A stretch of 64,000 nucleotides of DNA from Raillietiella orientalis (taxonomy: Eukaryota): positions 558,001-622,000 of the forward strand of contig JAYWIR010000030.1 of NCBI GenBank assembly GCA_036172245.1. Direction: 5' to 3'. The notes beneath the pieces are model-generated. The model saw only the letters and a list, made by a program, of their open reading frames with translations. It was not told the origin of the DNA and did no database searches. Made by a program: the position numbers and the translations under genes. Of the stretch, positions 1,561-64,000 are shown one piece after another (the stretch's first letter is position 1; the number at the start of each line of letters is the position of its first letter).

Positions 1561-4500
1561 ACGGAAAGAAGAACTCCGTCCGATAAATCGACACTCCGGT
1601 TGCTTGGAGACGATCCTTGGCGTCCAAGAGATGTGCACTTCTGAGCAACGAGAGCGGACGGCACTGCTTGCTGTTCGATGTCATCGCAGGACGCGCTGCG
1701 CGGAGGTCGAAGGCGAGCTGCGTCAAGAAGGGCGGGGTAAGCGCGCCCGCCACCCGAGAAGCTGTGGCGTGGAAGCTGAACGGCAGGAGCGGCGGTGAAC
1801 ACCTCCCCCCTCGCGGCCTCCCACCAAAACCGCGCATCCATCTCCGAGGCGCTTGCTGACCTCCCGCGTCACGGGAGGGTGGTCAGCAGGCGCCTCGTAG
1901 TCGCGCCACAGGACGGAACAGACCGCGGAATTCTCCCCATTGCTGGACCGCTCGCCCGCTCGGGACCGAGTCATTCCTTCCTCCGCTTTGGCCCTTCCAG
2001 GGCTCTCAGGAGGTCGACGGTCACACTGACCTCTCCCAGACCGCGTCCAGGTCTTCCGGGGAAGCGGGCTCGGCTCTAAGCTGCGAGCACCCGCACTTCT
2101 GGGAAGCTCTCCAAGCCGACCCGGAGGCGGACGATCGCGGAAGCAGGAGAGGGCGGGACAGGGTCAGCGGATGCTGCACGCTGGGGTTCGTCCCGCCTCT
2201 CTGGCCTCAGCCTGAGGGCGGAGAGGGAGCGCAGGGGGACGCTGAGGTCACCAGCGGCGTCGAACGGCCGCGTCCTCCCGTTGTCAGGACATCTCCTCTA
2301 CGCCGCGAGGAACGGGGAGGGGAGAAAGGAAGAGGGGCCCGCTGACCAAGGCGATGCGACCTCCGGAAAGGGAAATCCTCGAGGGTAGGCCTGTCCATCA
2401 AAGCGGCTCAGCCTCGCACTCTGAGTGACCCGGGACACCTCCACCTCCATCCGCTGCTCACAAGGCGCGAAAGTCTCCTGAGTCGTACCGGAGTTCAGCG
2501 TCCGGATCTCGCGTCTTTCGGATGCGAGCTGCGGGATCACCCTCTCCGGCACCTACTTTTTGTAGGGCCGACAGCGGACTGTTTCCTTTGGAGTCCGGCG
2601 TCACTTGGGAAACCGGATGAAGCCTGCGTTGGGTGAGGTAGGGGTTGCTCACGGAAGAGGGGAACCGCAGGCAGTGGTCCGCCGCGACTCCACCCCCCTC
2701 TCGGGACATGCCCCGCACTCGTGGACCGCCTTTCTCCGCGTCCTCTCGACGGCCGCCTTCTCGCTCGTCAACCCGCGCGGAGTCGCGTTGCCAGGCTTGC
2801 ACTCAGGGTCGGACGTAGGGGACGTGCTTGGGACTGCTTCGGGCGGGAGCTCTGCGCTCCCTGGGGGAGTTTCCTCTTCCGGATGTTTCCGATTACTCCG
2901 GAGAGCTGGGTCTCCTTCGGAACCCGTCGCAGACCTCCTATGTCCTTCTTCCTGGGGTCGTTCGACTGGATCCTTTCCCTCCCCTTCCCTCCTCGTCGCG
3001 GAATGGTCCGGATGATTCGGGAAGCGCCGGTGTTTTTTTTTCCTCCTGCTTCTCCTCCCTGTTTTCACTCTTCATCGCCACCAGCCAACCAGATGAAGTG
3101 GACCTCAGCTCTCCCGCCGGCGCCGGCCACTGCCTCTTCGGCCTGGGCTCCAGGAAAGACCAGCGGGCTCTGAGCGAGAGAAGCACCAAGGGGAGAGGAG
3201 GAAGCGACCAGGTCCATTCCTCCCTTTCGCCTGCTGAGTGCGGCTCTGGGGAAGGTTGGTAGGAAGCGGGGGCAGGGGGATCGGCGTATATGCTCTGTTC
3301 CCCCCCCCCCTCCCAGCTGCAGTGGCGTGAGGAAAGGCATCGCTTCCCCTTTCCCTCCCTCCCGAGGAAGAGGGAGGGATGAGGGGGCTTCGCGGTCCCT
3401 TGTGGCCGACTGGGCGGCTTCGCACACGCGCACTCGCCGCCTCGGAGACCTCGCGCCGCTCTGTCGTCCGGCTTGCGCACGCGCACGCACGCTCTCTCTT
3501 CAGCCGCGGCTCGGAGCCGCGAAAACGATGACGGCGACAAGCGCCTGCCTCGGAGGGGGCGCGCGCCTCCTTGCCCGCGCGCGGCGCTTGGGGAGGAGGA
3601 GGAGGAAGAAAGGGGGGGGGTCCCCTGCTCCCCTTCGCCACTTCCGCCTGCGAGTCGCGCTCTTGCCTGACCGAGCCTCCTCCGAGGCGTCGCTGACCTA
3701 TAGCCGACGGCGAGCGTCGTGACGGAGGAGCGCTCGGTCCACGAGAGCTCCTCTCCCACCTTCCTCTTCTCCTTTGTGTTCTGCCTCGATGGCGTCCGCC
3801 GCTGCGCCTTCACGCGGGAGCCGCCTCCCTTCGCGCTGTCACAGTTTCGCTCGTGACTCCGGAGGGTGAGAGCGGGTGCACACGTGCCCCGCCCTCGGGA
3901 AAGAGCCGGGAGGGAAAGGAGAGAAGAGCAGGAGGACGTCGATCGCGCGCCCTTCCTCCCCTCCTCCGGAAGTGGAAGCTCCTATGACAGCGGTCCTTTC
4001 GTCCCTCCCTCATGGAGGGACGCGGGAAGGAATCCCCGGCTAGCGCGCGCGCGCCCCTATTCCTTCTCCCCGTCTCCCGGAGAGGCAGCGGGCTCCGCGC
4101 GCTCTGAGGAACGCCTCAGGGCCCAAACGACCCCAACGGACTGCACTTTCACGCGCGCGCGAGTAGCAGCAGCAGCAGCCGGGGCTCGGACATCGGCGGC
4201 TCCTCGCGTGACGCTTGCCCCGCGGGCTGTCCGCGTCCCGAGCCCTTCCCCGTCGGCCCCTCCTCCTGCGCGCCGCGCTGCTGCTGCCCCGCGCGCAGAG
4301 GGCTGCGACCAGCGACCGGCGGCAACGGTCCAAAAGAGGCCCTAGTCCACCGAAGCAAACGTTCTCTCCCCGGGCTCGACAATCCGCTCGCTCTCCCAAA
4401 GCTTCTTCCCAGTGCCGCTGGGTCGCGCCTTCCACCGATCCCTCCGCCGCAGGGCGCAGGGGCGCGCGTGCCTCGAGACCACCTTCCGTTCCTCCTGTTC

Positions 4501-4916: not shown

Positions 4917-7635
4917 GGACCTGCTGCTTCTCTCTCCCTGATCGGGGAGCCGGCTGCTCGGCCGCGGAGAAGCAGCTGCTGCTGCGCGTCGCCCCGCGAC
5001 ACCCAAAGATGGCAGGGAGAGGGATGCGCCCTGGCATCGGACCATCCGTCCCTTGGGAGTCCGGCAGCCGCAAGACGCACCTCCGTGACCCGTGGCGAGC
5101 CGCTTAGAATCGCACGCTGCCTCCGTGGCAGTCCTCAGGGAGGAAGGGCGTTCCCGTCGGACAGCGGGAGCAACGGTAAGACCTCGACCTCCGGCCTGCA
5201 AGACGCGGAAAAAGACAACTCCAAGGTTTTCATCGTCCCCCTCGTCCCTGTTCTCCCGGAGGCGGAGCCGAGGACCAGTGCTGACCCTGCCCGTATCCCA
5301 ATTCTTCGTACCTCCCATCCCCGCGCTTCCGTCCGGTGACCTGTTCCTTCCTCCCTAACTCCCTCTCCTTCCCCATCCTGGATTGATGATTCTCGCAGCT
5401 CTCTGGATTCCTCCGGGCATTGAGAGGGACGGAACCCAGCGGCCCATCCTCCTGGAAGGCGCCTTGCAATCCGACGAACGCGACTCCGCGGAGGGCCGCT
5501 CCCCTTTCTGTCTCCACGTGCCTGCCCACCGAGCGGACGAAAAGACGCCGAGCTCCGGAAGGCGGCATCAACGCCAGCTCGCAAGTCTGTCGTCCTGATC
5601 GGGGAACCCAGGCGCCCGTCGGTGGCGCGGAGGTCACAGCGACGTCGCCCTGCCAGCAGGTAGCGCTCCCACAAGGACGAGGCGAGGGAGGAGAAAAAAT
5701 AAGTGGGTGAGGAGACTGTTGACCCTTGTTAGGAGGATAGGACGTGAGTCCGAAAGTCACAGCTCCGTGCTTCCTCAGGGAGAAAGAAGGGAATGAGGTG
5801 GGGAAGATCGGTACTTGATGAATACTAGGGAAGTCTTCCTTTTTTCTTCGGTGGAGACAACTCCTTGGCTCACCGAACGCTTCCCACAGACCTAGGGTCA
5901 ACAGGCATCGATCTCGAGCAGTGGCTCGGTGATGGCCGCTTGCCGCACGGACTGCTCACGGACCCTCCTGGGTGTTTGTTTTACGAGACCTCCCCTTCCG
6001 CTCCGTGATAGTGAGCCATCCCTGCAGCTCCAGAAGCCTGCCGACTGCCAGTACGTCGGATGGGGCGCTCTTGCCGGCTACGATCTCAACTATATCCGAC
6101 GTCTTGAGCAAGGCAAGAGCTAGCCGCCCTCCCGGAAGGAAAGCGGAAGCAGCACTCCTTGATGCTCCAGCGAACAGATGGCAGGCCAATCGCGAGAGCG
6201 GTGTGCACAGCAGTCCTCTTTGCGGAGGCAAAAATGATAAGCGGAAGGAAAGGGAAATCCACTTCCCTAGTGGTATGCGTGTGCATGCGTGCATGTATTT
6301 AGGCGGAGGGAGGGTGAGAGGAGGGGGTGAGAAGGAGGGTGAGATATTGCACTTGATCAGACTTTCTGGGGTGGGGGTGGTCGGCACGGAGACGGAACCA
6401 TCCCGCCGGGAAGTTTGAGTGGCGTGACCACCCCATTCCACCCGAACTATAGCCCTACAGCTACGTTTGTTCGACATCGGTGGATTTCGACCAACCTCTT
6501 GCGTGGGAACGGGGTGACTCTTCCCATCCTGGAAACGATTCTTTTTGTAGAATGTGTACCTCCCGCAACTCCCTTCTTCGCTTTCCTTTTCGTTGAGAAG
6601 CGTTCTCCATGAGCAACAATCTACAGATGCAAAAAGGTCATTCCAGCTGATTCTCCTCCTCCTTCTCCCATCCTTCCCCTCCTTTCCATATTTCTTTCTC
6701 TTCCTCGTCACAGGGACTCCTGAAAGGCGGCGGTCTTTGCTGAGGCTCGCGCGTCCACCGGTCAGCAACACGGAACGCACCATGGTCTTCGCGCACTCTC
6801 TTCCCCACGCGCGCCGCGTCCGGAACATGCTGGGAATTGGGAGGTCAGAGAGAATCCACCTCCATCTTCGCCACCACCTCTCTCCTTGTCAGGGAGCTCC
6901 AGGTGTCTCTGAACATCGCCTACGGAGGCGGCCACCGAGTGCCTCAGTCCTTCCTCTTCAGGACGGGACGATTCGCTTTCTGAGACCACCATTATCGGAT
7001 CGCAAGAAGCTCCTCGTCAAAGAAACGACTTCCTCAAAGGAGCGGCGGAGAGAAGATCGCTCCTCGTTGCTAGGCAGGGCGAGCTGGCGAATCAAAGCCC
7101 TTCTTCGTGGTCCTCCTCGGGAACAAGACTCACGACAAACTTCTCCTGCCAGTGCCATCCTGGAGGGTGCTCCTGCGTAGACCGAGGAACTCAGTGAAAG
7201 GCGCTGACTTCGTCTCTGTCTCTCTCGAGCATCTTCCTCAACTGGGAAGCAGCAGCCTCTCTGTCTCTCTGGACAGGAAACAAACCACCGATAACAAAGG
7301 AGCCACTGACATGACCGCAGTCGGAGGGTCTGAGCACGGGAGGGTATGTGCTCCTGGAAGTGTCCGCGAAAAAGGAGCGGGTGCCTCTCCCCCATACAAT
7401 TCGTGGTCTCTGGTGGACGCTTCTAGCTCTCCCTGGACAATGGGCGCTGCTCTTTTCTTCCTCCGTTCCTTTCTGTTCCTCGCTAGAAGATCCAGCAGGT
7501 GTCTTCAGAAGCGATCGAGAAAGCTTCTTGGGTCGCAGCTCTCTCCTCCATCTTCGGTACCAGCTGTGTCCCCCGACGTTGGAATAGATGCCCTCTGTCT
7601 TGGCCAGCATAAAGGGAAAGACAACACCTAGAGCC

Positions 7636-8217
7636 ACTCTCCAAGATAGGGGATACCCCGAGAGGGGACCACCCTAAGAATCCAGGAAAGGCTCCGGAGA
7701 AGGGAGTGCGTTCCTCCCACGCCTGGGGAAGGATCCCGAAGGGAATCTCCTTCCTTATTGTCTCCGGAGGACCCCTGGAGGGGTCCGCTCCATTTTTGTT
7801 CTCCGAAGGGAACCCCGAAGGAATGCTTCCGAAGGGAGCAAATTTCTCAGAAAGGTGCTCCCCGAAGGGAGAGGCGCGCTTCTCTTCACTCTGGAGAGGT
7901 ACTACACAACTCCATGGGACCAGACCGAGGTTTCCCCTCGAAAAAGGGGTCCACTCCTTTGACAACCGGAAGGAAATTCCTACTCCTTGATTCCTGAGAG
8001 AAACCAGAGGTGGATTCCCAATCCCAGCCACCCATGGGAGACATCCAGTTTAAATCGCTACCGGCGCCGCACCGAATGCAGGCCAACCAGCGTCCTCTTG
8101 GGGGAGGAATTCGAACCCACGACTCCATCTCTCGGCATCGGTTCTTGCCGAGCGTTTGAACCCGCAACGCTTGGTGGCGCCGCGCGCGGAGATCGCAGCC
8201 ACACAGCCTCCGACGCG
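7636..8217 (-). mobile_element. tRNA-headed, UNCG-hairpin-rich SINE-like element, copy 2
   Basis: The reverse complement begins CGCGTCGGAGGCTGTGTGGCT...GCGGGTTCAAAC...GTGGGTTCGAATTCC and ends CCTGGATTCTTAGGGTGGTCCCC...CCCCTATCTTGGAGA. Five CCGAAGG (= CCTTCGG) motifs lie within 7735-7870. Confidence 0.7.
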
Positions 8218-8399
8218 AGCTCGGACGAACACTGGGGCAAACTAAAAGAGTTGACAGGATTCCCCTAGCAAGTGTATTCTGCTCGTTTTTACTCCTCCTC
8301 CTCTGCTGTCATCATCGTCGCCGTCATCGACACCATCTTAGTCGCTCCACCATCATTGCAGTCGTCAGTCATCGTTATGGGCATCATCAGCCGCTTCGC

Positions 8400-9420
8400 C
8401 ATCACCAGCTACGCGTAAGACTCTGTGAAGCTGCAACTGCCCCCTCGCGCTCGGTCGTCCCTGACCTGAAGGGGCCGGAGGTAGCACGGAATAGAGAAGA
8501 GCGCCGGAGACGAGGTGCTTCGGGCAGAGACGCAGGGTCGGCTGGGGGCAATCGAGAAGAGGGATGCCGGGGAGCAGCTCCAGCAGCTCTTCCACAGGCT
8601 GAGCGCCACTCGAAGGGCAAATCGTGGAGGCGGTAGGTTCGGTGGCCGCTGACCTCCTCAGTATCCTCAGAAAGATAGGGAGAGGTCAGGAAGCTGCTCT
8701 CTCAAGCCACCGCTTGCTCCTCGGGGCAGGTAAACGCAGAAAAGAGGCCGAGACCCCCCAGGAGGCGATCCTCTTTCCCTCTTCTTCTTTTCTTCTGGAA
8801 GGTACGCCTTCGTAGCTCGCGAAGACAGTGGAGTACTCTCCAGGGACTCATCCAAAGGAGCGGAAGACTCGAGCATGACGCGACCTCGACCTCGACCCAT
8901 CCTCAAGCTCCAGGTTGATGATGCGTCCCACTTGCCGATCATCGTTATCAATCGTGGTAACCATCACCAAGTATCATCATTATTATTGACAAAAAAGAAA
9001 AAACAACACCACCATCCTGATCATGAGCCATCATCTCCATCACCATCATCTCGATACAGCTCGCTCTCGTAGGGGCTGGAGAGAAAAGGGAAGTCTTGTC
9101 CGACGGAGCAAGCGACAGGTGAATGACTCGATGCGACCTCGACCTCGATCCCTCCTCAAGTTCCAGGCAGGCGCTGCGCGCTGCTTGCCGAAGATCGGAC
9201 TGTCCACAGGCGCTCCCTAGGGGACCTATTTGGGCAGGCGGTGCGGACGCCCGAATAGACCCGCCTGGGTCCACCGCGGACAGTGGTGGGTGGCGGCCGC
9301 CGCAGGGGCTCTGGAGGGGTCCTGGAGGCCTGTCGCGGAAGGGGATTCCGTCCGGGGCGTGGTGCAGTCGATGTCTTTGGCCCTCCTTGTGGGCGTAGGC
9401 GGCGAATCCTAGCACGAGGA
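8400..9420 (-). mobile_element. decayed L1/Tx1-type LINE, APE endonuclease fragments
   Basis: SDLRQAARSACLELEEGSRSRSHRVIHLSLAPSDKTSLF resembles the D..GR...L....R.I..YAP....FF segment; a downstream SGH...SLWKS (across frames) resembles SDH...WKLN. 8940-9375 is homologous to 46619-47032. Confidence 0.55.
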
Positions 9421-10039: not shown

Positions 10040-10660
10040 TTTAGCAGTACCAACCAAGCGTCGCGTGGCGAAAGAGAGTCCCTCCAGTCCTGCTCTTGGA
10101 TTGTGTGGCCCTCCGCTTCCTGCGGGAACGCTTTGCCGCGTCCCTGCGGATCTCCGAGGGCAATCCCAGAGCCGTTTTGAAGCGCCGCTTCCTCCGTGAC
10201 GCCTTCACGCCGGCTGCATCCCTAGCAGCACTCTGTTGCCTACACGGCGGGACAATGAGCGGCCATGAAGCAACGTAACAGGAAGCCAAGAAGAAAGGGA
10301 CGTCATCTATTTTGCTGTCCTCTTCATGAGGACAGCATCAAGATGATATCATCTGGGAGTTTTGAAACAAACTTTACTGCATCCGGAAAAGGATGCAGAG
10401 GAGTCCCTACAGCATCCGATGATTCCTCCTCGAATCCCCCCAATTTTTTGTAGATATTTTTTGTTTCTTTTTTCTTTTTTGTTGTTTCCCCTTCCCCTCT
10501 GCTGCCGAGGCGAACCTTGTCGGCCTACGTGCCGGTACTCGGCAGGTTCCCATGGTTATATTTGTAACGTGGTAGGACCAAGCGTCCTGCCACTGACTTG
10601 TGTGCTTATTGTATATAAATAAACTCCCAGGCGCATCCAAGTTAAAACCAAGCGTCGCGG
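10040..10660 (+). mobile_element. 3' end of an L1/Tx1-type LINE (zf-RVT remnant plus conserved 3'UTR)
   Basis: LLDCVALRFLRERFAASLRISEGNPRAVLKRRFLRDAFTPAASLAALCC, then a T-rich tract, CTGCTGCCGAGGCGAACC and AATAAAC. Homologous to the copies at 37.5-37.9, 45.0-45.7 and 50.0-50.6 kb. Confidence 0.7.
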
Positions 10661-24000: not shown

Positions 24001-26970
24001 CTTTCGTTGATTATTCTTTGGGAGTGGGCAAATTGAAACTTAGAAGTGGAATTTCAGGTATCAGAGACTGTCCAGATATGATGACAATATTCAATACTTT
24101 CCAAATATTGAATAATTGCCGATTTTCAAATGTCAATGCCATTTTGGAGATAGCCGTGTACCGGATACCATAATTTACGGTAACACTGCAGGATTAGAAA
24201 AACGCACGTTTCTTCTGCAACTGCAGTGTATTTATTCAAAAAGAGTTGTAATTTCTATAGTGCTATTGATTGAGGTCAAGATTCTCAAGAGAGACATGCT
24301 ATATTTCAAAGTAACTTCATGTACAAAGCATTTAGTCGTTATTTTGTATACAATGCTAAGGAAGCATCTCGATTTCATTTGAATGAATGGAGATTCACTT
24401 TGCATTTATAAGGGCAATTTTATTTTTGTTGAAGAAGTGATCCAATTTGTTTCATGTTAGCATATCCATATGAGTAAACACACTGAAGTTCGTCGGATAA
24501 CTTTATGAAATACAAAAATACGCAGTTCTAATGGCAACACTGAAAAATTAATAACTGCAAAACGAGAAATATTCGTTATCAATAAAAAAAAAATTTCCTC
24601 TGCATTCGCGTTTTAAAACTTGAGCAAATAATTAGAGAATGCGGTGAAACTGAAATCAAGGGAGTTGCAAGCTAATCGAAATGAAAGAGAAATCAGCCTA
24701 AGATGAAACTGAATTTCATCACTATTTTCTGAAATTCTTCCCCCACAGCTTGAATATCTCATGTATTCAAATTGATATAAAGCAAACAAAAGAAGCCTAG
24801 GACTCCTTTATGAATTAGTTTAATCGAATATTCAATGAGTGCTTCACATGAGCGACTCGTTCCTGTGGACTCGAAAGTACTAGCCTAGGGGAATAAAGCA
24901 AGGTTTCCTCCGAATCGCGAATTTTAAGCGAATAGCGTAAAAGAACTGATGTAGGACATGCAACACTTCGAGAAGAGGTGAGACTTAAATCCAAACATTA
25001 CAAAATTATTATTATAGAGCATTATTTTATTTGTCATCACGAATGGGGGTCCAAGAATGTATTTTCATCTCCGTATTCAAGGATTTAAAAGCTATAAATG
25101 AGACGTATCAATAAAGCATTCTGAATGCAATAACTCCAAGTCTGACTAGCGATTCCCACATTATAAGAACATTACTATTATAAGAACACATCAATAAAAG
25201 GAGCAACATCACTGCTAAAGTTTTCAAGTAAACCACGGAAGTTTTCTTTTATTGAAATCATAATGTTGTCTGTTTTCGATCTATGCTCTGTCATATGCAA
25301 AATGCTTCCGCAGTCAAAACGAAAAGCAGAGATTCTTCTGAATTCATTGCTATTGAAGTGTTATTGCACCTCTCGGATTATTGGTGGGGAAATACGTCAG
25401 CTAATTAAGCAATTCCTTGCGATGACATCATCTTTTGCATTATGACCGCATTCTGATTATAGAATGTAACGGAATTCTACCACTGAGCTAGAGTAAGTGC
25501 ATCTACTTATCATAAGAAACAACAAATCATACTTCATGAGGATCTTTGAAGCATCACGAAACGAAAATTTGAAAATAGCAATAAAAGAAGGTGGAAAATT
25601 AAAGAATGGCAAAGAATTTCAGTAAAGTATGTCTTCTACAGCTCAGATACCGTGGTATTATCATAATCTCTTATTTCAAGCTGTATCATTGAAAAACTCA
25701 TACTTCGAATCTTGAATGCCTCCCTTCATCAACTATATAAAAATTCAGATGTCAGCTGCTTGTGGAAAGTCTCAAATGTCTTTGGGACCTCAGCGTGCTA
25801 GAGGAAAGAAAGTGCGAGGTGGTTTGCAGAACTTCACAGTCTGATGCTCTTCAACTTGACGTTTCTTCGGATTCGTCGAAAGTGGAAAGCAGCCATAACA
25901 GACGGATCGTTCAATGAGGAGAGAAATAGAATGAGGCATTGCAGTACACGGCACTTCTTGAACGGTTTGCAGATAAATTCTCCCAACCTCAAGTACCTAC
26001 TTCCACAGAGATTATTCCGACTAGAACTTTCATGGATGATCGTTGACTCAGTTTTTTTTCTAAAGATTAATGCAGTCGGGCACATAAGTGAAATCTGAAA
26101 ACATTGCAATTCATTATACTAAAAAAATTTTTCTTTGTAAAGGAATTACTAAGGATAATCATTTTGTGTAATCATTTTGTGTTCTGAATCCCACAGTTTT
26201 CAGTTGAATTAGACTGAAAAGTGTTTTGATCTTCTTTTCTTTTATAAACTCATTTATAAATAAGATAGCACAGTTGAACACACATATGTAAAATAGTCAT
26301 TAATACAATTATTTTTAAGCAGCTCACGATTTGCCATTAGCAGTTCTAAAAGCGAAAGCCTTTCAAAGTGAGATACTTGTGAGTCTATGCATTCGATGCT
26401 AAACAGCACATGTTTGCATCAATTCTTCAAGAGAAAAATAGAATATAAAGAGCGTTGCCATAAGAAATTATTATGACCAATTGAAAAGATAAAGCTGAAG
26501 TAACAAAGGTCTCAGCAGACGAATGGTAATGGTAAAAGAGAATATTACAAAATAAGTGCTTTAATAGTTGTCAGGAAGAACTAACGAGTGGATAAAAGTG
26601 TATGGGTGCTGAGTGCAGTTTTGCACACGGATGAGAAACAACAAAAAAGCAGTGTGCTTTTGCAAAAAAGCTGATCTTCCAAATGATTACAAAACTTTGA
26701 CCAACATATAAACAAAACTTTGACTTTGTTTGCACTGGTCGACATGCATACTAAAAATAATCTCTTTTGCTTGGTAGCGGGATTTTTATCCGTTCCAGCA
26801 CAGTATTTAGGAAGGAATGGAATCCATAAGTCAAATAGGTTGCAAAGAATCAAGATAAAATGATACATAGGATCAAACAAAACAATCAAATCTCTCCCCC
26901 ACCCCCACCCCATCGACTCGAAGGCGATGGGGTCGGGGGGGGAGGGGAGAGACAAAGGGATAGATGGATA

Positions 26971-26992: not shown

Positions 26993-27218
26993 CAGCTAAG
27001 TAAGGTTTCCCAACAAAAAGTGAAATGGAAATAAGGAGTATTATCCTTCAAATTCCGTGCAGAAAACTATTTTTTTTCCTCTAGATATAACTGTTTTAAA
27101 TTAATGTTTCATGAACTCTGAAGCTAAGTTAGGATTAATACTTGCATCAGTAGTCAAATCTCTTATGGTCTGCACAAATTTACATATCTAAACCACCATC
27201 CAAAAAAAAAAAAACGAA

Positions 27219-28096
27219 CCGCGTCGGAGGCTTTGTGATTAAGGCTTTCGCGTGTGGTACTATGCCTCGCGGGTTCGAATACTTCGGCAGGAACTGACGC
27301 CATTGAGTCCGTTGGGTTCCAGGTTTCTCCTGCAATGGCGCTGGTTGGCCGGGACATTCGGGCGTGGCACTGGTGGTCGTTTAAGCCGGAGGCCCCCGAT
27401 GAAGGCCGGAACAATGGGAGTCCGACCTTCGGGTCCTTCCAGGAATCAAGGAATGAGGAGTTCCCCCTTCTGTCGTACAACGGAGAGCGGCACCCCCCAC
27501 ACTGGAGAAAGGCCCCTTCCAGTTTCAAGATGGAGCAGGAGCCCTCACGGGAACCTCTCCTAGTTGTTTAATGGCAGCCGCGGACCCTCCCCCCTATTGC
27601 GGGAGGGACCCTCAAGTTGGCCGCCTCTCCAGAAGAGTTCAAGGAAGCAAGCGAGAGCGATCCCCCTGCGGGAAGCTGCAGCTCCCCTTCTGAATTTCGG
27701 AAGCGTCCCTTCGGGGTTCTCTTCAGAGGAGTGAACAGGAGCGGTTCCCTTGCGGGTTCCCTCCGGAGAAGAAATTCCTACTAGCGGATCCTTTCCGGGT
27801 TCTCTTGGGAGAAGATGAAACGGGAAATCTCCTTCCTCATTCCCCCCCACCAGAGAGAATGAGGAAGGAGATTCCCTTCGGGGTTCACCTTCGGAGACAA
27901 CTAGCGTGGGAGGTGCGATCCGGGGAGATCCTTCCCCAAGAGTGAGAGAAAAATAGACTCCGAGCCCTTCCTGGATTCATAGGGCGGACCCCGCCTTCCG
28001 GGTTGCCCCTATCTTGAAGAATTACACGCATCCTCCGCGGTGGCGTGGTGCTAAGAGCCGCGAGGCATGTGACCGGCTCTTGAGGTACTTAGCGAA
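27219..28096 (+). mobile_element. tRNA-headed, UNCG-hairpin-rich SINE-like element, copy 3 (longest, GC-rich insertion in AT-rich DNA)
   Basis: Head CGCGTCGGAGGC...GCGGGTTCGAATAC; hairpin GACC-TTCG-GGTC (27424-27435); 3' motif CCTGGATTCATAGGGCGG...CCCCTATCTTGAAGA (to ~28020). Flanked on both sides by CC-A-run-AACCGC-like direct repeats. Confidence 0.75.
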
Positions 28097-30031
28097 CCAA
28101 AAAAAAGAAAACCGCACATTCATCAGACAATAATCAGTTTTTCGTTCTTCAAAGGAATGTTGGATTGAATGGAGTTTTATTTTCTACCAAAATAAGCGAA
28201 GTCCCACATTTTGTTGATCCAGTAGGCTCTTTCCGTAAGAAATCAGTCTAAACAAAATGAATTACAATGTAAACTTCGGAAAATCATTTGTCTGGGGAGA
28301 CATTACATCTGAAGAACGCTAGGTACTTGCAATTCTCAATTCCAAAACAATGTAATTTGTTAAATATAAGTTGGCATTTAGACAAACACATTGCAGACAA
28401 TCTTGGCATGACAGGGAGCACAATCAAACTAACTGGAAGCTAAACAAGGAAACGTTGTTTTTGGCAACATTTAAGACCTGGATTTCAGTCTTATTCAAAG
28501 GGTCATTTTGGACAGTCTTCGAATAAAGTTGTGGTGGCTTCCTTTTCAAACTCTCACGAATGCTCCACATTACGCAGATGCAAGATTCCTGAGGAAATGT
28601 ACAAAATTTGAATGGTTTATTACTGATTATACTTGTGAAACATGATAATATGTTCAAAAGGATGTAGGTTAAAAATGTCAAAAAAATTGTCTTGTATTGA
28701 GAAACATAAAACAATAAATGATGGCTTAAGAATTATTGTAAATATACAGTTCTGATCTAGTTAACAGGAAAACCCTAGGATTAGATTCATTGCTTTATTC
28801 AAAAACCTTATCCCATGAAACTGCTTACTCCCACCTAGACAAAACCCAACAGACCTTTTGCTCACAGTATAGCCAAAATCAATTACAAAGAAATAAGATT
28901 CTGCACTAGGAAATGGTTTCATTTTTCTAGCAAGTTCAGGACATTTTTTTTGAAGTTACCTCTTTTAGGCTGTTACATACTGTCGTTTTCCTTCTTATCT
29001 AGGATTCAGTTGAGGATAAAGTCTCTTCTACATAGTATATATGGTATCATCCACAAGAAAACAATATTTGGAGCGATCTAGGTTGATTTATTATAGTCCA
29101 ATGAATTTGATTTTATTTCTTTGCTCCATATTTACTTTCAATGAAAAATGTTTCATCTTTTGAAAGAATTGCACAAATTATAAGCCAGTAATTAGTAATT
29201 GGGTTTTATTGTTCCATTATGAATTGATCTAACAATACGAGCTACAGATAGATTTACTGTCAAATTAATTTGATGTCTATTTTCATGAAAATTACTTAGC
29301 ACTCAATACTTTAGTGTCCGTTCAAAACATACTCATTTTATTTTGAGAGTATTCTGTGAATTCTATTGACACACACTTTACTTTGTAATAAAAAATTCCT
29401 TACGAAAAATTACTACGATAGAAAATGATATATGATTCTAAACGGTTTTGAAATTTTTCTGAACTGGTTGTTTTTTAGCAGTAATACTCAGTCTAATCGC
29501 ATTCGTAGGCCGAAAATCATTTTAAACCCTGCATTATGTTTTATTTTCAGATACAATGATTTGATGCAATCAATATTTAAGAAATTCAAATAAAGCAATT
29601 AGATCTTCATCATTACAGTTGCCCAAATGAATGAATAAGGGCACATCAAATACAAAGATTTCAAGAATTATATATTTTCCCATCAGATTTCTGCAATTAT
29701 TTAGTGACATAATTACTTATCGAAAATTTTCTGGTTATTGTTTCTTTTTTCTACATTTATTAGTGAATATTCTGGTTGTTTGTTTTAACTCTTAATGCAA
29801 CTAATGAGTAATTACTTCTTAATTACAGTTATTCATTCTTGTTAATTAAAGTCATTCTTTTTTAATAAATTTTAGTGCTGAGTAAGAAGTTTTCTTTTCG
29901 ATACTTTCATTGCACTTTTTTAGAAAAGTTTTCGTAACTTATTCGACAGCAAGAGCTTTTAATTTTTCATCTACAAATTATAATCGACTTTCCCAAAAAT
30001 ATTTTCAAAATTAGTTGGTAATCAATGGGAA

Positions 30032-36200: not shown

Positions 36201-37519
36201 CACTCACTAAATCACGCGACTTGTTCACTCTATGAGGACAGAGAAAATCCTTTCATTTTCTAAAAGGAATCCCCTTGGTGCAGCGAGAACACCATCCCTC
36301 TTCTTCTTCTGTTTTTTTGCACGGTGTGGTTGATCGCTCCAGGACGCAAAGAAACTGGTGGAAGCAGTTCAGTCATGGAGATCGAGGGACGGCGAGCGGA
36401 CCAACTAATAGCCTCGGGAGGTTCCAATCAGGGACCCGAAGCGTTCAGTTGCGAAGGTCCTTGTCGAGTCGAAAGAGAGAGGGTGGGGGAAGGAAGGAAG
36501 ATCCTGTTCCCTTGCTCACCTCTCCTCTCCTCAATGAGTTTGGAGATCCGACGGAGAAGAAAGAGAGATCCGACGAGAAGCGGCTATCTCCGAAGAGCAG
36601 GGTGCTCCGCAGCCATCCGGGGACGACGATGGGGCACCTCGCTTGTTAGTCTAGGGGAGGGGAACCCGTAGTCAATGAGGGAGTGAAGTTCGAGGGTTCG
36701 TGGGATTCGACGAATTCCGCTGGCTCCACTGTAATTTGTGAAGAGGGTTTTCTAGGAGAGGACCGTCGTTTTCTCTGCAGCCGAAATTCTCCCTCTGAGA
36801 TCTGGAAGAGAAGTTTCTCGTCTCAACTTGCATTTCCTTCCTTCCCTCCCCTTTTGAAAGAAAAGATGGGAGGAAAGGGGGTCATTCCTCTTGGAGTTCA
36901 AGAAGGGAATCACGAAGCGTGACTCACCACGATGGAAAAAGATCAGTAGGAAAAGATCCCGCTGGAATCTGTTTTTCTCTCGTCTTTCCCCTCCCCGCCT
37001 CCGTTCCTTCTCTCTCTCAAGGCATTGCCAGATTCAGAGAGATGGAAATCAGTCTCAATCCATCACGCTGGATCCCTTCCATCAATGAAAACACGTCCGG
37101 AGGGCCTCTCTTTGCCCCCCTCCCCCTTCCAACTCATACGGATAGGCTTCGGACTATACCGTAAGCAAGTTGATCCGATTGAGACTGATTGGAGGAAGCT
37201 ACGCACAAGCAATCCTATCCTTTCCGCCTCCCCACTTTTCTCCCTCCTTCAGTCCTCGCCGCTGGAGCGAGTTTGACTCTTCCCACCAATCTCGGGCGAA
37301 GAACTTCAGAGAAGGATATTCCTAGTTCAGAAGAGGAGAAGGCGGGAGAGGAACAGGTCATTTCTACGGAGCCTTCCTCACAATCGAGGTTCTTCCCCCC
37401 CTCTCCACCAAATGCGGAAGTCCTTAAGAAAGTAAAATGTTGCGTGCGAGCATCTTCCTTCAATACTCACCCTTGCAGCAATTTGCTGCCTCCGCGGGAT
37501 CGTGGTGGCGTAAAGCGAC

Positions 37520-37885
37520 GCCAACGGGGGAAGTAAAGACAGGGACGCCATCCACTTCGCTCTTCGCTTTCTGAGGATAGCGGCCAGATGGCCCCACTTG
37601 GACAAGCACGACTTTGCCGGCATCCTTCAAAGGATGCAGAGGGCCACCCTCGGCGGACAGAGATCCCTTCCCGCACTCCCGCTTCCTCCCGGAATTGTTT
37701 CATTGTTATTTTGTTTCTTTTTCTTTGGGTTTGATCCCTCTCCTCTGCTGCCGTGGTGGACCTCACCGTCTGCTAGCCAGCAAAGCGGCAGGTTAGATAC
37801 CAAAAGGACGTGGTTGGACCACTGGTCCAACCACACAAATTGTAAATGTTTATTTAATCTTTAAATAAACGCCCCGGCATACTCG
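37520..37885 (+). mobile_element. LINE 3'UTR fragment of the same family as 10040-10660
   Basis: GCATCCTTCAAAGGATGCAGAGG, a T-rich tract, CCTCTGCTGCCGTGG and AATAAACGCCCCGGC. Confidence 0.55.
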
Positions 37886-45024: not shown

Positions 45025-46100
45025 GGCGTCTCGCGGTTTATCAATCGGTCACGCCGGAGCGTTTATTATAAAAAAACAATGAACATACATGCATAGGGCC
45101 ATTGGTCCTACATCGCTCGAAAATGTTCGGTACCTGCGAGTAACCGGCACGCAGGTCGGCGAGGTTCGCCTCGTCAGCAAAGAAGGGGAGGAGCAAACAA
45201 AAATAAAAATAAATAAAAGTCAATAATGAAAAAAAAATACTGGGGGTACGGGAAGGGGTCACTGACCACTGAAGGGCGTTCTCTCCATTGTTTCCAGGGT
45301 GCCGAAAAGTTCCATCCGAGTGTGTCCCAGGTAGGGCCATCTAGTTGCCGTCCTCATGGAGCTCAGGGCGAAGCAGGTGGCGTCCCTGTCGTGCCGTCCT
45401 CCTCTCGCATAGTTTTACAATCCCGAATAGTCAGCAAAGAGCTGCTAGGAATGCGGCAGGCGAAGGGGTATCGCGCACGAAGAAGCGCTTCCTCACGTCC
45501 GTGGGATTGTCCGTCTTTGCACCAAGGGCCGTTGCGTAACGCAACCATACGGACCGGAGGGCAACACAGTCTACAAGCAGGTGCAGGAGCGATTCCCGTT
45601 CCTCTCACCTGCAACAGTCGGAATCCACAGCCCCCGGGTCCAGTGAGACCAGAGGGAGTTGCAAGGGATATCCCCGTGCATCAGGGCCGACTCCTGCCAC
45701 TTCAATGGGAGGGTGTGCCTATCCAAAAACGCTGAAAGCAACTGCAGATCTTCCGCCGGAACTCCCAGTAGCTCGCCTTAGTGCAATAGCCCTCTTGATG
45801 ATGCACTTGGGATCGCAGAGTCCGTGAGCTGGCCCGTGGTCCAACCACCTAATTCCTTCGTCCGAAGACCTATTTCGCAACTGACCTCCCATTTGACAGG
45901 CTGGTTACTGCCCAGGTGCTCCCTGAGGGAAGGCAGCGCCGCAACAAGGGAAGTTCTTTGCTCGCACGCACAAGTGGTGGGCTGCACGATAACGTCTTGC
46001 AACGGACGTTGTAGTATTTGTTGTAGAAGGAGTGCAGCAGTCGCTGCCACAGCTTCAGACCCGCTTCTTTGTTCTTGGCCCATGTGCGAAAGGTTTCCTG
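45025..46100 (-). mobile_element. 3' portion of an L1/Tx1-type LINE (post-RT region, zf-RVT, 3'UTR)
   Basis: KWEVSCEIGLRTKELGGW (cf. ..PK..GGLG), LLHLLVDCVALRSVW...NPTDVRKRFFVRD...AAFLAALC, and the family 3'UTR ending AATAAACGCTCCGGCG. Confidence 0.7.
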
Positions 46101-46618
46101 CAGTCAGGCACTACCATTCGCGGTCCGGCAGAAGATCCAGTTGTTGGTCCCGGTCCGTTTGAGCACTTGCTGGAGCTCCAATCAGCAGCAGGACTGGTTG
46201 CGTCTGCGCCGCCGCTCCAGGAACGCCGTGCGTGGTGCACCGGCAGCATCTTCACGGTCGCTGCAGCACGCCTGACGAGCGGACAAACGGTGGCCGGACT
46301 GACAGGCGCTGCTCTGCTCGCGGATGCCGACGTCCTCGTTCTCGTGCTCTGCTACAGAAAGCGTCGTTCCTCATTAGTTGCAGAATAAAAGGAGGAACGA
46401 ATGAAAAATGGCGTTTGGGGAGGGCACTGACGATGGAAACCCTGACGGAGATCTGTAGCGATTCTGACGTGCGAGTCGGCCATAAGAGAGGGATGCGGGA
46501 CGGATAGCGGATGCTCTGCTTTCATCTGCAGTTTCCTTGCCTTTCTTCCTCTTCGTCATCATTGCGAACAACAATCACGGGCGTCAGCTTCAGAGTCGGT
46601 GACACTATCACGTTCCAC

Positions 46619-47080
46619 CATCATTATCAATCGTGGTAACCATCATGAAGCATCATTATTATCGACGAAAAAAGGAAAGAAAACACCATCATCGTCATCA
46701 TGAGTCATCATCTCCATCACCACCGTCATCTCGGGATAGCTTGCGCTCGTAGGGGTTAGGGAGAAAAGGGAAGTCGTGTCCGAAGAAGCAGGTGACAGGC
46801 TATTGACTCGATGCGACTTCGACTTCGATCCCACCTCAAGCTCCAGGCGGGTGCTGCGCGCTGCTTGCCGAAGATCGGGCTGTCCGCGGGCGCCCCCTAG
46901 CGGACCTATTTGAGCGTATGGTGCGGGCTGAATCCGCCGAGTACAGTGATGGGTGGTGGCCTGGAGGAGTGCTGGAGACCTGGTGCGGAAGCAAATTCCG
47001 TCCGGGTAGCCTTTGGGCATGGTGCAGTCGATCCCTGGTCGTCGAGGAACAAGACTCTGTGAGCATCTGGCGGTGCACTC
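46619..47080 (-). mobile_element. LINE endonuclease fragment plus (CAT)n-rich segment, paralog of 8940-9375
   Basis: Colinear nucleotide similarity to 8940-9375 in the same orientation, e.g. ATCAATCGTGGTAACCATCA and GCTGCGCGCTGCTTGCCGAAGATCGG in both. Confidence 0.75.
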
Positions 47081-49950: not shown

Positions 49951-49999
49951 AGGAAAAAGGGAGGGAGTTCCGACATCCGAAATTTCCGTGGAGTATGCT

Positions 50000-51000
50000 G
50001 GATTGACATCCGGTTGCGCCGGGATGTTTATTTTTATACAATAAACACACAAGTCAGTCGCAGGATGCAACCCGTCCTGCCACATTACAAGTGTAACCAT
50101 TGGAACCCGACGAGAATCGGCGCGCAGGCTGGCGAAGTTTGCCTCGGCAGCAGAGGAGAAGGGGAAAAACAAAAAGGAAAATAAAACAAAGAATATATGC
50201 AAAAAAATTGGTAGACTTTGGGAAGGGATCACCGGATTCTGGAGGGAGTCCTCTGCATCCTTTCCAAAATGCTGGCAAGTTCCATCTGAGTGTATGTCCC
50301 AGGTGGGGCCATCTTGCTGCGTCCTCAGGAAGCACCAGGTGAAGCAGATGGCGTACCTGTCGTGCCGTCCTCCTCTCGCGTAGCTCCAGGACGCCACGAT
50401 CCCGCGTAGGCAGCAGCAAAGAGCTGCTGGGGATGCGGCAGGAAGAGGCGCTTCAGAACCTCTCTGGGGTTGCCCTCGGGGTTCTGCAGGGACGCAGCAA
50501 AGCGTTCCCACATGGAAAGGAGAGCAACACAATCCATGAGCAGCTGCGGGAGAGTCTCCTTCTCCACGCACTTGTCGCATTCTGCACCTACCCTCTCCCC
50601 TGTCTCGTGGTGAGGTCACGCTTTGCATGGGATTCCCCAATGCACGAAGAACAGCAGCCCCAACGTCTGCCACTTGAGGAAAAAGGTGCCACCATGGGGG
50701 CCGCTTTATCTCATCGGGAAATCGTAGCAGGAATTTGTAGCAGCTCTCCCCAGCGTAGCAGTCCTTTGGATGGGACACTCAGCTGCCGAGTTGTCCGCGC
50801 ATCCAGATGTTTTTTCTTGTTACGCACGTCACCTTTTACCGCTGTCCCTTGCTTCCCATAGAGAGGGCAGTACTGGAGCGAAAGGGGGTGGACGACGTCC
50901 AAAGCAGATTCCCGGTGTCATTCAGGATCTCCCAAGGCGACCGACGAGCGTATCTCCTGGTAAGTGCTCTGGATGGAATCGGCCGAGAGAGACACGGTCC
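50000..51000 (-). mobile_element. 3' portion of an L1/Tx1-type LINE (zf-RVT plus 3'UTR)
   Basis: ECDKCVEKETLPQLLMDCVALLSMWERFAASLQNPEGNPREVLKRLFL, then the family 3'UTR ending AATAAACATCCCGGCG. Confidence 0.75.
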
Positions 51001-63060: not shown

Positions 63061-63607
63061 GCCAGATTGACCACCTGACGAGCATGCAGATGGGACTTGC
63101 CAGCAAACTAGAAAGGATGGAGGACACCTCCAGACAGACTGTGATCCCATCCCGTGCATCCCTGAGTTTTTCTCCCTATTTATACGTATTAAGTCCTTTT
63201 TAGTTGCTTTGGGATTTTCACTTGTTCTCTACTCCCTCTGCTATTGAGACGGACCTCGCTGGTCTGCTCACTGGCACCTTTGCAGGTTTCTTTCTCATAT
63301 AGATGAGCGTGGTAGGACCACGTGTCTCATCACAACTTCTGCTACCTTTCTGCGTTTGCAGCGAACGCTACAGAGTGACTGGGTGGCAGTGAGCCCTACC
63401 GATCGCTGTAGGACGCTCAAGCTGGAGGGCAGCATTAGACATCGCTGCGGACACCGGCCAAGTTGAGCCATCGGAGTGGCAACAGATTCGCCACCTTGGA
63501 TGGGAGTGGAGTTTTCTCTTTTTCTGGTTCGCAAAGTACTCAGGAACATCCTTAAAAGAGTCACAAAACTTTCTGACATTGTCCACGTTCCCCGAGTGCG
63601 CGTGTGA

Positions 63608-64000
63608 ATTCTCAGGCTGGGAAGCAACTTCGTAGGGACCACCCTATGAATCCAGGAAGATTCGGTGAAGGAGTCTGTTCCTCTTACTCTTAATAGGGAA
63701 CCCCAAAGGGGAACTCTTCCCTATTTCCTCCTGGGATCTTTGGTATCTTCGGAGGAAGTCACTCCTTATTTCTTCTCCGTGGTGAAACCGCAAGGGATCC
63801 GCTTCTCGTTTCCTCCTCTGAAGAGAATCCCGAAGGGACGCTTCTAAATTTCTCTGAAGGACTCTCCACGAAGAGAGCAAAGCACTTCTTGACACTCTAG
63901 AGAGTATCAATCCACCAGCTTCATGGTACGAGACAGAGTATCATGGAGTTGGTAGACATATTACGGCTCCATTCACACAACCGGAGGGGAACCCTGAATG
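63608..64000 (-). mobile_element. tRNA-headed, UNCG-hairpin-rich SINE-like element, copy 4 (5' part beyond the window end)
   Basis: GACCACCCTATGAATCCAGGAA is the reverse complement of the family 3' motif. The hairpin ACCAGCTTCATGGTAC...GTATCATGGAGTTGGT (63914-63953) is homologous to ~1270-1307 in copy 1. Confidence 0.65.

Follow-up and report, generated by a model that had tools for sequence, protein, structure and literature searches.

Four related stretches of DNA are scattered over the 64,000 nucleotides analyzed here (the window), and one of their strands is rich in the UNCG motif. The c(UNCG)g loops represent an extra-stable family of RNA tetraloops. The question raised by this locus is whether these stretches derive from a long, multi-branched structured RNA that was mobilized as a retroposon, as the original prediction held, or from a mobile element of a common kind. 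The best reading is the latter, a relic of an ordinary mobile element as opposed to a new structured RNA. Probably, these stretches are old copies, in neutral decay, of a non-autonomous, non-coding interspersed repeat family, most likely a SINE-type retroposon.

Copies of the Repeat and Their Ends

In total, four related copies of one repeat, referred to as copies 1–4, were found in the window, and blastn revealed no further copy there. Local identities between the copies are 67–92% (67–85% for alignments of at least 40 nt), and the copies are therefore considered old. The copies are dispersed, have discrete ends, and are 0.5–0.9 kb each in length:

1034–1560, + strand: copy 1, short form, with the head, a middle module as in copy 4, tandem units, and the 3′ motif, lacking the long tail
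7637–8220, − strand: copy 2, also of the short form, in the orientation opposite to copy 1
27215–28113, + strand: copy 3, the sole intact long-form copy, ~0.9 kb, with homology limits at 27220 and 28112
63511–64000, − strand: copy 4, 3′ part of the long form, with the 5′ end cut off by the window edge

The relatedness of four diverged copies had been proposed earlier, and the blastn comparison of the window and flanks agrees with it. The common 5′ end is located at positions 1034, 8220, and 27220 of copies 1, 2, and 3, respectively. The 3′ end of the short form is located at 1560 (copy 1) and 7637 (copy 2), and that of the long form at 28112 (copy 3) and 63511 (copy 4). No homology past these shared termini was found by blastn in flanks of at least 1 kb, taken on the sides lying within the window. 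Copies 3 and 4 extend further than originally proposed: copy 3 reaches ~28113 instead of 28096, and copy 4 continues down to 63511 instead of 63608.

In the GC profile, copy 3 is a sharp 58%-GC block of ~0.9 kb within AT-rich (35%-GC) DNA. The observed-to-expected ratio of CpG (CpG o/e) is 0.65–0.90 in the repeat copies vs. 0.39–0.48 in the flanks of copy 3. The most decayed one is copy 4 (48% GC, CpG o/e 0.65). Copies 1 and 2 are inverted, with their heads outward, around ~6 kb of DNA with 56–68% GC. This intervening DNA contains long ORFs having no Pfam match, namely of 347 aa (2938–3981, − strand) and 310 aa (5956–6888, − strand); it may be a gene, part of a composite element, or simply GC-rich sequence with open frames.

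Modular Organization

The repeat family is modular; a head is followed by middle modules that vary, the array of ~42-nt units, a conserved 3′ block, and the 3′ extension of the long form. In copy 3, the following features were distinguished:

27221–27300, + strand: head, in which GCGTCGG (27221–27227) can pair with CTGACGC (27294–27300)
27272–27282, + strand: B-box-like motif GGTTCGAATAC, found by a B-box scan; the A-box-like match is weak
27698–27900, + strand: degenerate tandem array of the ~42-nt unit, GCG.TCCCTTCGGGGTTC.YCTYNRGAGAAG
27698–27733, 27738–27773, 27781–27816, and 27865–27900, + strand: array units U1, U2, U3, and U4
27819–27880, no strand assigned: inverted repeat of ~25 bp forming a long hairpin, private to copy 3 and inserted between units U3 and U4
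27971–28020, + strand: best-conserved block, CTGGATTC..TAGGG..CCCTA..CTTGAAGA, with invariant alignment columns
28021–28113, + strand: 3′ module of the long form, ending with GTACTTAGCGAACC and then the A-rich tail A8GA4CC, common to copy 4 only

The middle modules are mosaic. Thus, positions 1224–1412 of copy 1 match positions 63998–63813 of copy 4 with 78% identity, and positions 8217–7972 of copy 2 match positions 27220–27465 of copy 3 with 68% identity (both by blastn). A conserved 3′ motif common to all four copies, as claimed originally, was recovered, with CTGGATTC..AGGG..CCCT..CTTGAAGA as invariant columns. The block carrying this motif terminates the short form on the 3′ side and is predicted to fold into a nested stem-loop. 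In copies 3 and 4, it is followed by the additional module of ~90 nt, which in the alignment ends with GTACTT(A/T)GCGAACC and the A-rich tail; the terminal regions 28085–28112 and 63539–63511 are 90% identical (blastn). The A-rich tail shares its strand with the B-box-like motif and the UUCG loops. Copies 1 and 2 have no such tail.

The flanks of copy 3 (27202–27220 and 28093–28113) contain A13 plus CGAACC on the left and CGAACC plus A8GA4CC on the right. These flanks fit either a degenerate 15-nt duplication (12 of 15 positions) or a duplication of the A-run with terminal CGAACC as a 6-nt direct repeat. Copy 4 likewise carries the 3′ CGAACC, and in copy 2 the sequence CGAGCTC is located just before the shared 5′ end. 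The inverted repeat of copy 3 looks perfect and was also detected as a self-match in inverted orientation by blastn (27823–27876). Its region has sub-threshold miRNA-like Rfam matches on both strands (best score 28.8 bits vs. a gathering score of 90), and it is probably just a long hairpin.

UNCG Motifs and the Tandem Unit

The CTNCGG motif was found at 22 sites on the sense strand of the copies (6, 7, 7, and 2 in copies 1–4) vs. 6 sites on the antisense strand (1, 2, 2, and 1), and ~4.2 sites summed over the copies are expected from dinucleotide shuffles. The observed counts were attained by at most 1 of 1000 shuffles for copies 1–3 and by 41 of 1000 for copy 4. In the other 61,622 nt of the window, 73 sites on the + strand and 87 on the − strand were found, which corresponds to ~1.3 sites per kb per strand. 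Thus, the strand-specific excess of UNCG motifs reported in the original prediction is real.

Stems of at least 3 bp are possible at 9 of the sense sites (3, 3, 3, and 0 per copy) vs. 2 antisense sites. In shuffles, 0.72 ± 0.86 such sites were found, and none of 300 shuffles attained 9. With stems of at least 4 bp, there are 4 sense sites vs. 1 antisense site. The body of the element had been described as densely packed with hairpins; this description is correct as to the enrichment but overstated as to the density, with about three proper c(UNCG)g hairpins in each of copies 1–3 and none in copy 4. Small tetraloop hairpins of all kinds show a modest excess on both strands (201 and 195 vs. 162 ± 13 in shuffles).

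The aligned stretches contain 23 motif sites, 22 in the element and one beyond copy 1, and these sites form 17 column groups. Only 4 of the 17 groups are common to at least two copies, and many sites are near-variants of CTTC(A/G)G found in one copy only. Variation had been thought to fall often at the N position of UNCG, but mostly it is not variation of one site: a single homologous site reads UACG in copy 1 vs. UUCG elsewhere. Most of the UCCG cases belong to another motif (CTCCGGAG-like).

When as many as 3 mismatches are tolerated, the 14-mer TCCCTTCGGGGTTC has 24 matches in the window vs. 8.9 ± 3.0 expected. Within the copies lie 15 of these matches (4, 4, 4, and 3), all in the sense orientation. 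In copy 3, they are located at 27706, 27746, 27789, and 27873, with spacings of 40, 43, and 84 nt. The four units of copy 3, compared over 36 nt without gaps, are identical at 19–27 positions (53–75%), vs. 9.2 ± 2.8 for random pairs taken from the same copy.

An nhmmer profile built from these four units detected 2–4 units in each copy at E < 0.1 and no match better than E 0.75 elsewhere in the window. The matches were found in copy 1 at 1381–1413 (E 0.0018) and 1454–1474 (E 0.084), in copy 2 at 7830–7797 (E 3e-6) and 7751–7730 (E 0.028), and in copy 4 at 63844–63813, 63803–63771, and 63717–63694. Additionally, blastn yields matches that are offset by one unit, and more diverged unit-like stretches can be seen by eye in copy 3 around 27660 and 27424. 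Tandem Repeats Finder, applied to positions 27150–28150, did not call the array; the units have diverged too far for it.

In the unit, TTCG stands between a run of pyrimidines and a run of purines (TCCCTTCGGGG), which gives a mini-hairpin of 3 bp. The greater part of the CTNCGG excess goes back to the degenerate array of the ~42-nt unit. The excess of c(UUCG)g mini-hairpins is attributed to several duplications of this TTCG-bearing unit in a master copy. As most UUCG instances descend from one unit, the excess reflects few events and not independent ones. The locus illustrates that tandem duplication of one unit can produce a conspicuous excess of a "special" RNA motif, with no need for selection.

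Coding Capacity

No open frame extends throughout any of the copies. Stops interrupt all six frames of every copy, with 1–10 stops per forward frame, and the absence of an ORF noted in the original prediction is thereby borne out. Additionally, no reverse-transcriptase, transposase, or integrase domains were found in the 12 + 57 window ORF translations scanned, as expected of a non-autonomous element.

Short peptide strings do recur in the translations, the unit giving strings like PFGV.. and SLRGSL.., and the copies could be imagined to be exons of related genes that encode a peptide of repetitive sequence. This explanation is effectively refuted by the stops in every frame and by the strings themselves, which shift frame among copies and units. 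The unit spacings in copy 3 are not all multiples of 3, and the copies are located on both strands in unrelated contexts.

RNA Structure

If the c(UNCG)g hairpins were kept by selection, the repeat could be a long multi-branched structured RNA and a member of an undescribed family of non-coding or mobile RNAs. The excess of motifs and of stemmed sites described above agrees with this explanation, as does the orientation of the UUCG loops, which is that of the B-box-like motif and the A-rich tail. Some UUCG hairpins are located outside the clear unit array and have differing stems, namely GACC/GGUC at 27424–27435 and GAGUCC/GGGCUC at 1218–1233. In the inner stem of the 3′ block, one U-A pair is swapped to A-U. 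The whole of copy 3 folds with a z-score of −3.11 on the sense strand, but the antisense strand reaches −2.81 (20 shuffles each); as both strands fold equally well, folding marks no strand.

The smaller parts of the element do not fold better than shuffles. For single units, two isolated UUCG hairpins, and the 3′ block, z-scores range from +0.84 to −1.52, and for the 3′ block, which has a similar fold in copies 1–3, from +0.09 to −0.88. The sense units are 1–2 kcal/mol more stable than their complements, as UUCG bonuses and G-U pairs would lead one to expect.

Covariation of the proposed stems was assessed with RNAalifold. For the shared body of the four sequences, where the alignment is imperfect, the covariation term is +0.31, which gives no credit to the consensus. 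Double changes were found in 5 of the 46 consensus pairs, and most mini-hairpins were not picked; with n = 4 sequences, the power of this comparison is very low. In three orthologous UUCG hairpins, two wobble-preserving changes (C to T, in the 5′ arm), four pair-breaking changes, and no compensatory change were found in the stems, which is the pattern of neutral transitions. Two further changes lie in the loops of the same hairpins, and one of them abolishes UNCG at its CpG. Stem mutations thus break pairs as often as neutral transitions would, although four copies give this comparison very little power.

Rfam 15 has no match in the whole window at gathering thresholds. At E ≤ 10, only sub-threshold hairpin (miRNA-like) matches were found on the copies, on both strands. 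In summary of these tests, the covariation expected for the proposed stems received no support from the four copies, and neither did the multi-branched structured RNA itself: the motif excess comes largely from internal tandem duplication, and folding is unremarkable. As the data come from four dead copies, this lack of support amounts to weak evidence of absence and does not refute selection on the structure. Selection on the hairpins as the explanation of this locus is very improbable, most motif instances being attributable to one duplicated unit. The decay of the copies is considered neutral because of the lack of compensatory changes in the orthologous hairpins together with the local identities reported above. 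The mini-hairpins could form in RNA, and the copies show no sign of selection or of function in the genome.

The structure might also have mattered elsewhere than in the copies studied. A master copy could have produced a Pol III-type transcript of ~0.9 kb in which the hairpin array and the nested 3′ stem-loop were functional, with the four copies as dead relics of an undescribed SINE superfamily. The modules could then, for example, act as nuclease-resistant clamps or as repeated sites that recruit a host protein or the reverse transcriptase of the partner. Selection on the hairpin array in master copies would make this a SINE body of a new type, but we regard such a case as very improbable.

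Head and Pol III Signals

About 50 nt from the 5′ end, the B-box consensus is matched at 11 of 11 positions in copy 1 and, at the corresponding site, at 10 of 11 in copy 3. The equivalent site of copy 2 matches at 8 of 11 positions, and a second site of that copy at 10 of 11. Exact GGTTCGAAT has three matches in the window, all of them within the heads. The one in copy 2 (8109–8117) does not correspond in position to the other two; at the site homologous to those of copies 1 and 3, the sequence of copy 2 is GGTTCAAAC. In all three heads, pairing of 7 bp is possible between the first 7 nt and a stretch ~75 nt downstream, if G-U pairs are used.

Other signals of Pol III transcription are at the chance level. 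The A box has 2–3 mismatches, as expected by chance, and window-wide A-box matches (223 vs. 262 expected) are uninformative. B-box matches with at most one mismatch are not enriched in the window (7 vs. 5.4 expected), and a B-box look-alike arises by chance more easily here, because the tandem unit itself contains GGGTTC. Copies 1 and 3 have no T4 run in the sense orientation, but A4 runs are just as scarce there. Two exact A-box matches, at 25480 and 40327, were compared as candidates for further tRNA-derived repeats and rejected, being unrelated to each other.

No tRNA was found in the window by ARAGORN with default settings. Rfam models of tRNA, 5S, 7SL, and snRNA have no match at E ≤ 10 in stretches of 1–7.5 kb or in head slices of 116–151 nt. 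At 95% thresholds, ARAGORN makes one call in the window, at 1024–1114 in copy 1; this call starts upstream of the shared homology, and its register is not common to the other copies. Copy 2 is called only at 80% thresholds, at which ARAGORN gives 47 result lines over the whole window. The tRNA- or Pol III-like head of the original prediction thus holds as regards the conserved B-box-like motif and the shared 5′ end, but not as regards a tRNA recognizable by ARAGORN defaults or Rfam.

Nature of the Mobile Element

The assignment to SINE-type retroposons is based on the discrete shared termini, the GC-rich insert, the A-rich tail on the sense strand, GGTTCGAAT in the heads, and the absence of ORFs. 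The retroposon-like layout proposed originally is supported, as the element is discrete, dispersed, and non-coding, has defined ends, and carries the B-box-like motif and the A-rich tail on one strand. From these features, we infer an RNA intermediate, Pol III transcription, and dependence on a LINE. Transcription of the master copy would have run in the sense of the B-box-like motif, with RNA polymerase III as a possible enzyme, and would have yielded an RNA ending in the A-rich tail. The reverse transcriptase of some LINE would have copied this RNA back into the genome, perhaps recognizing the conserved 3′ stem-loop block. Several duplications of the tandem unit in the master copy would have produced the c(UUCG)g mini-hairpins; modular subfamilies would have arisen, and the copies would then have decayed neutrally.

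Some observations do not agree with this assignment. The head is recognized as a tRNA neither by ARAGORN with default settings nor, at E ≤ 10, by Rfam models of tRNA, 5S, and 7SL, which counts against a SINE-type element. The length of ~0.9 kb, the tailless short form, and the ambiguous flanks of copy 3 do not fit easily. Copies 1 and 2 keep the 5′ end and lack the long 3′ tail, which is the opposite of the usual 5′ truncation, and a separate short subfamily is therefore needed.

The same observations could point to a mobile element, or a fragment of one, belonging to another class: a solo LTR or a non-autonomous LTR element with a small-RNA-like piece, a derivative of a Helitron or DNA transposon, or the untranslated end of a LINE. 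The tRNA origin of the head is unproven, the element is longer than known SINE families, two copies have no 3′ tail, and the 6-mer CGAACC is found at both ends of copy 3. Moreover, non-autonomous LTR elements with small-RNA-like sequences are reported in the literature (PMC10886601). Against such an origin, copy 3 has neither terminal inverted repeats nor TG..CA ends, as judged by eye, and there is no direct LTR-like pair, copies 1 and 2 being inverted and only 71–78% alike. Homology stops at the termini, the window ORF translations gave no transposase, reverse-transcriptase, or integrase domain, and the A-rich tail better fits target-primed reverse transcription. We therefore consider another class of element rather unlikely. 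Candidate assignments as an LTR pair, a TIR element, or a Helitron were rejected, since the terminal repeats are only a 6-mer and no TG..CA or CTRR ends were found in copies 2 and 3.

Comparison With Known Systems

The SINE-type assignment can be compared with SINEBase (Vassetzky and Kramerov, 2013; PMC3531059). SINEBase comprises 175 families of 75–662 nt, tail not included; SINEs are short interspersed repeats of <1 kb, given as "<700 bp" in the narrative. A head is assigned by at least 60% identity to tRNA, 5S rRNA, or 7SL RNA over at least 60 nt, and A and B boxes are taken as an indication and not as proof. According to the same source, tandem repeats inside the element and a modular build of head, body, and tail are common among SINEs.

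Like the tRNA-related SINEs of that source (PMC3531059), the present family is interspersed, non-coding, and <1 kb long and has a head, a body, and a tail. The B-box-like motif ~50 nt from the 5′ end, the A-rich degenerate tail, and subfamilies differing by modules and by internal duplications or deletions are further similarities. Unlike these SINEs, the family has a head that is not detectably tRNA-like (ARAGORN, Rfam), and two of its copies are tailless. Copy 3, with ~0.9 kb, exceeds both the "<700 bp" of the narrative definition and the largest (662 nt) of the 175 SINEBase families (PMC3531059). A short tandem motif in the body with a variable number of repeats is also described there for the cetartiodactyl CHR-type SINEs (CHRS, CHR-2, and CHRL; PMC3531059). 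The present unit differs in being ~42 nt long and hairpin-forming, and the likeness is one of layout.

In stringent-type LINE/SINE pairs, common 3′ stem-loops are reported to be recognized by the LINE reverse transcriptase (PMC5135761, PMC6510757). Likewise, the most conserved block of the present family (27971–28020), which lies at the 3′ end or close to it, is predicted to form a nested stem-loop. It differs in that its fold is no better than that of shuffles and in that the long form adds a 90-nt module to it.

The element resembles c(UNCG)g tetraloops in the C-UUCG-G loop with its closing pair, repeated on the presumed RNA strand. It differs in that the stems are mostly of 3 bp and give no sign of selection or of a structural role, and in copy 4 a loop decays at its CpG.

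Full-text literature searches revealed no description of a UUCG-rich SINE, and the motif strings matched only unrelated primers. The repeat family may already be catalogued in Dfam, Repbase, or SINEBase. Scans for conserved motifs of the family yielded one locus in metagenome contigs, four in genome contigs, and none in viral contigs. These five loci were rejected as relatives, since each of them resembles the element nowhere but at the pattern, and they are attributed to chance.

Genomic Context

The window is eukaryotic and arthropod-like. It contains a gene for threonyl-tRNA synthetase (ThrRS), whose best matches are arthropod proteins at ~65–73% identity. Additionally, the domain scan revealed an ORF with DUF4789, which we take to be mainly an arthropod domain, as well as a PCI-domain exon and an SK-channel exon. 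A protein atlas search with the DUF4789 ORF gave no usable match. The main value of the present analysis lies in annotation, namely of a GC- and CpG-rich repeat family near genes (ThrRS and the SK-channel exon) in a compositionally patchy genome.

GC content varies from 27% to 68% per kb across the window. It is 27–35% around 16–20, 24–26.9, and 28–31 kb vs. 55–68% elsewhere, and CpG o/e per kb varies from 0.31 to 1.13.

Two other repeat families were found in the window. The first, referred to as R1, is unrelated to the family described above and is represented by 8940–9390 and 46615–47040, both on the + strand and ~82% identical over ~450 nt. R1 has an internal direct repeat of 68 nt (8877–8944 and 9130–9197). 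The second family, R2, has four diverged copies: 10090–10640 and 37480–37780 on the + strand and 49990–50570 and 45100–45640 on the − strand. The R2 copies have a mean column identity of 66% and a T-rich internal tract, and no coding domain was found in them.
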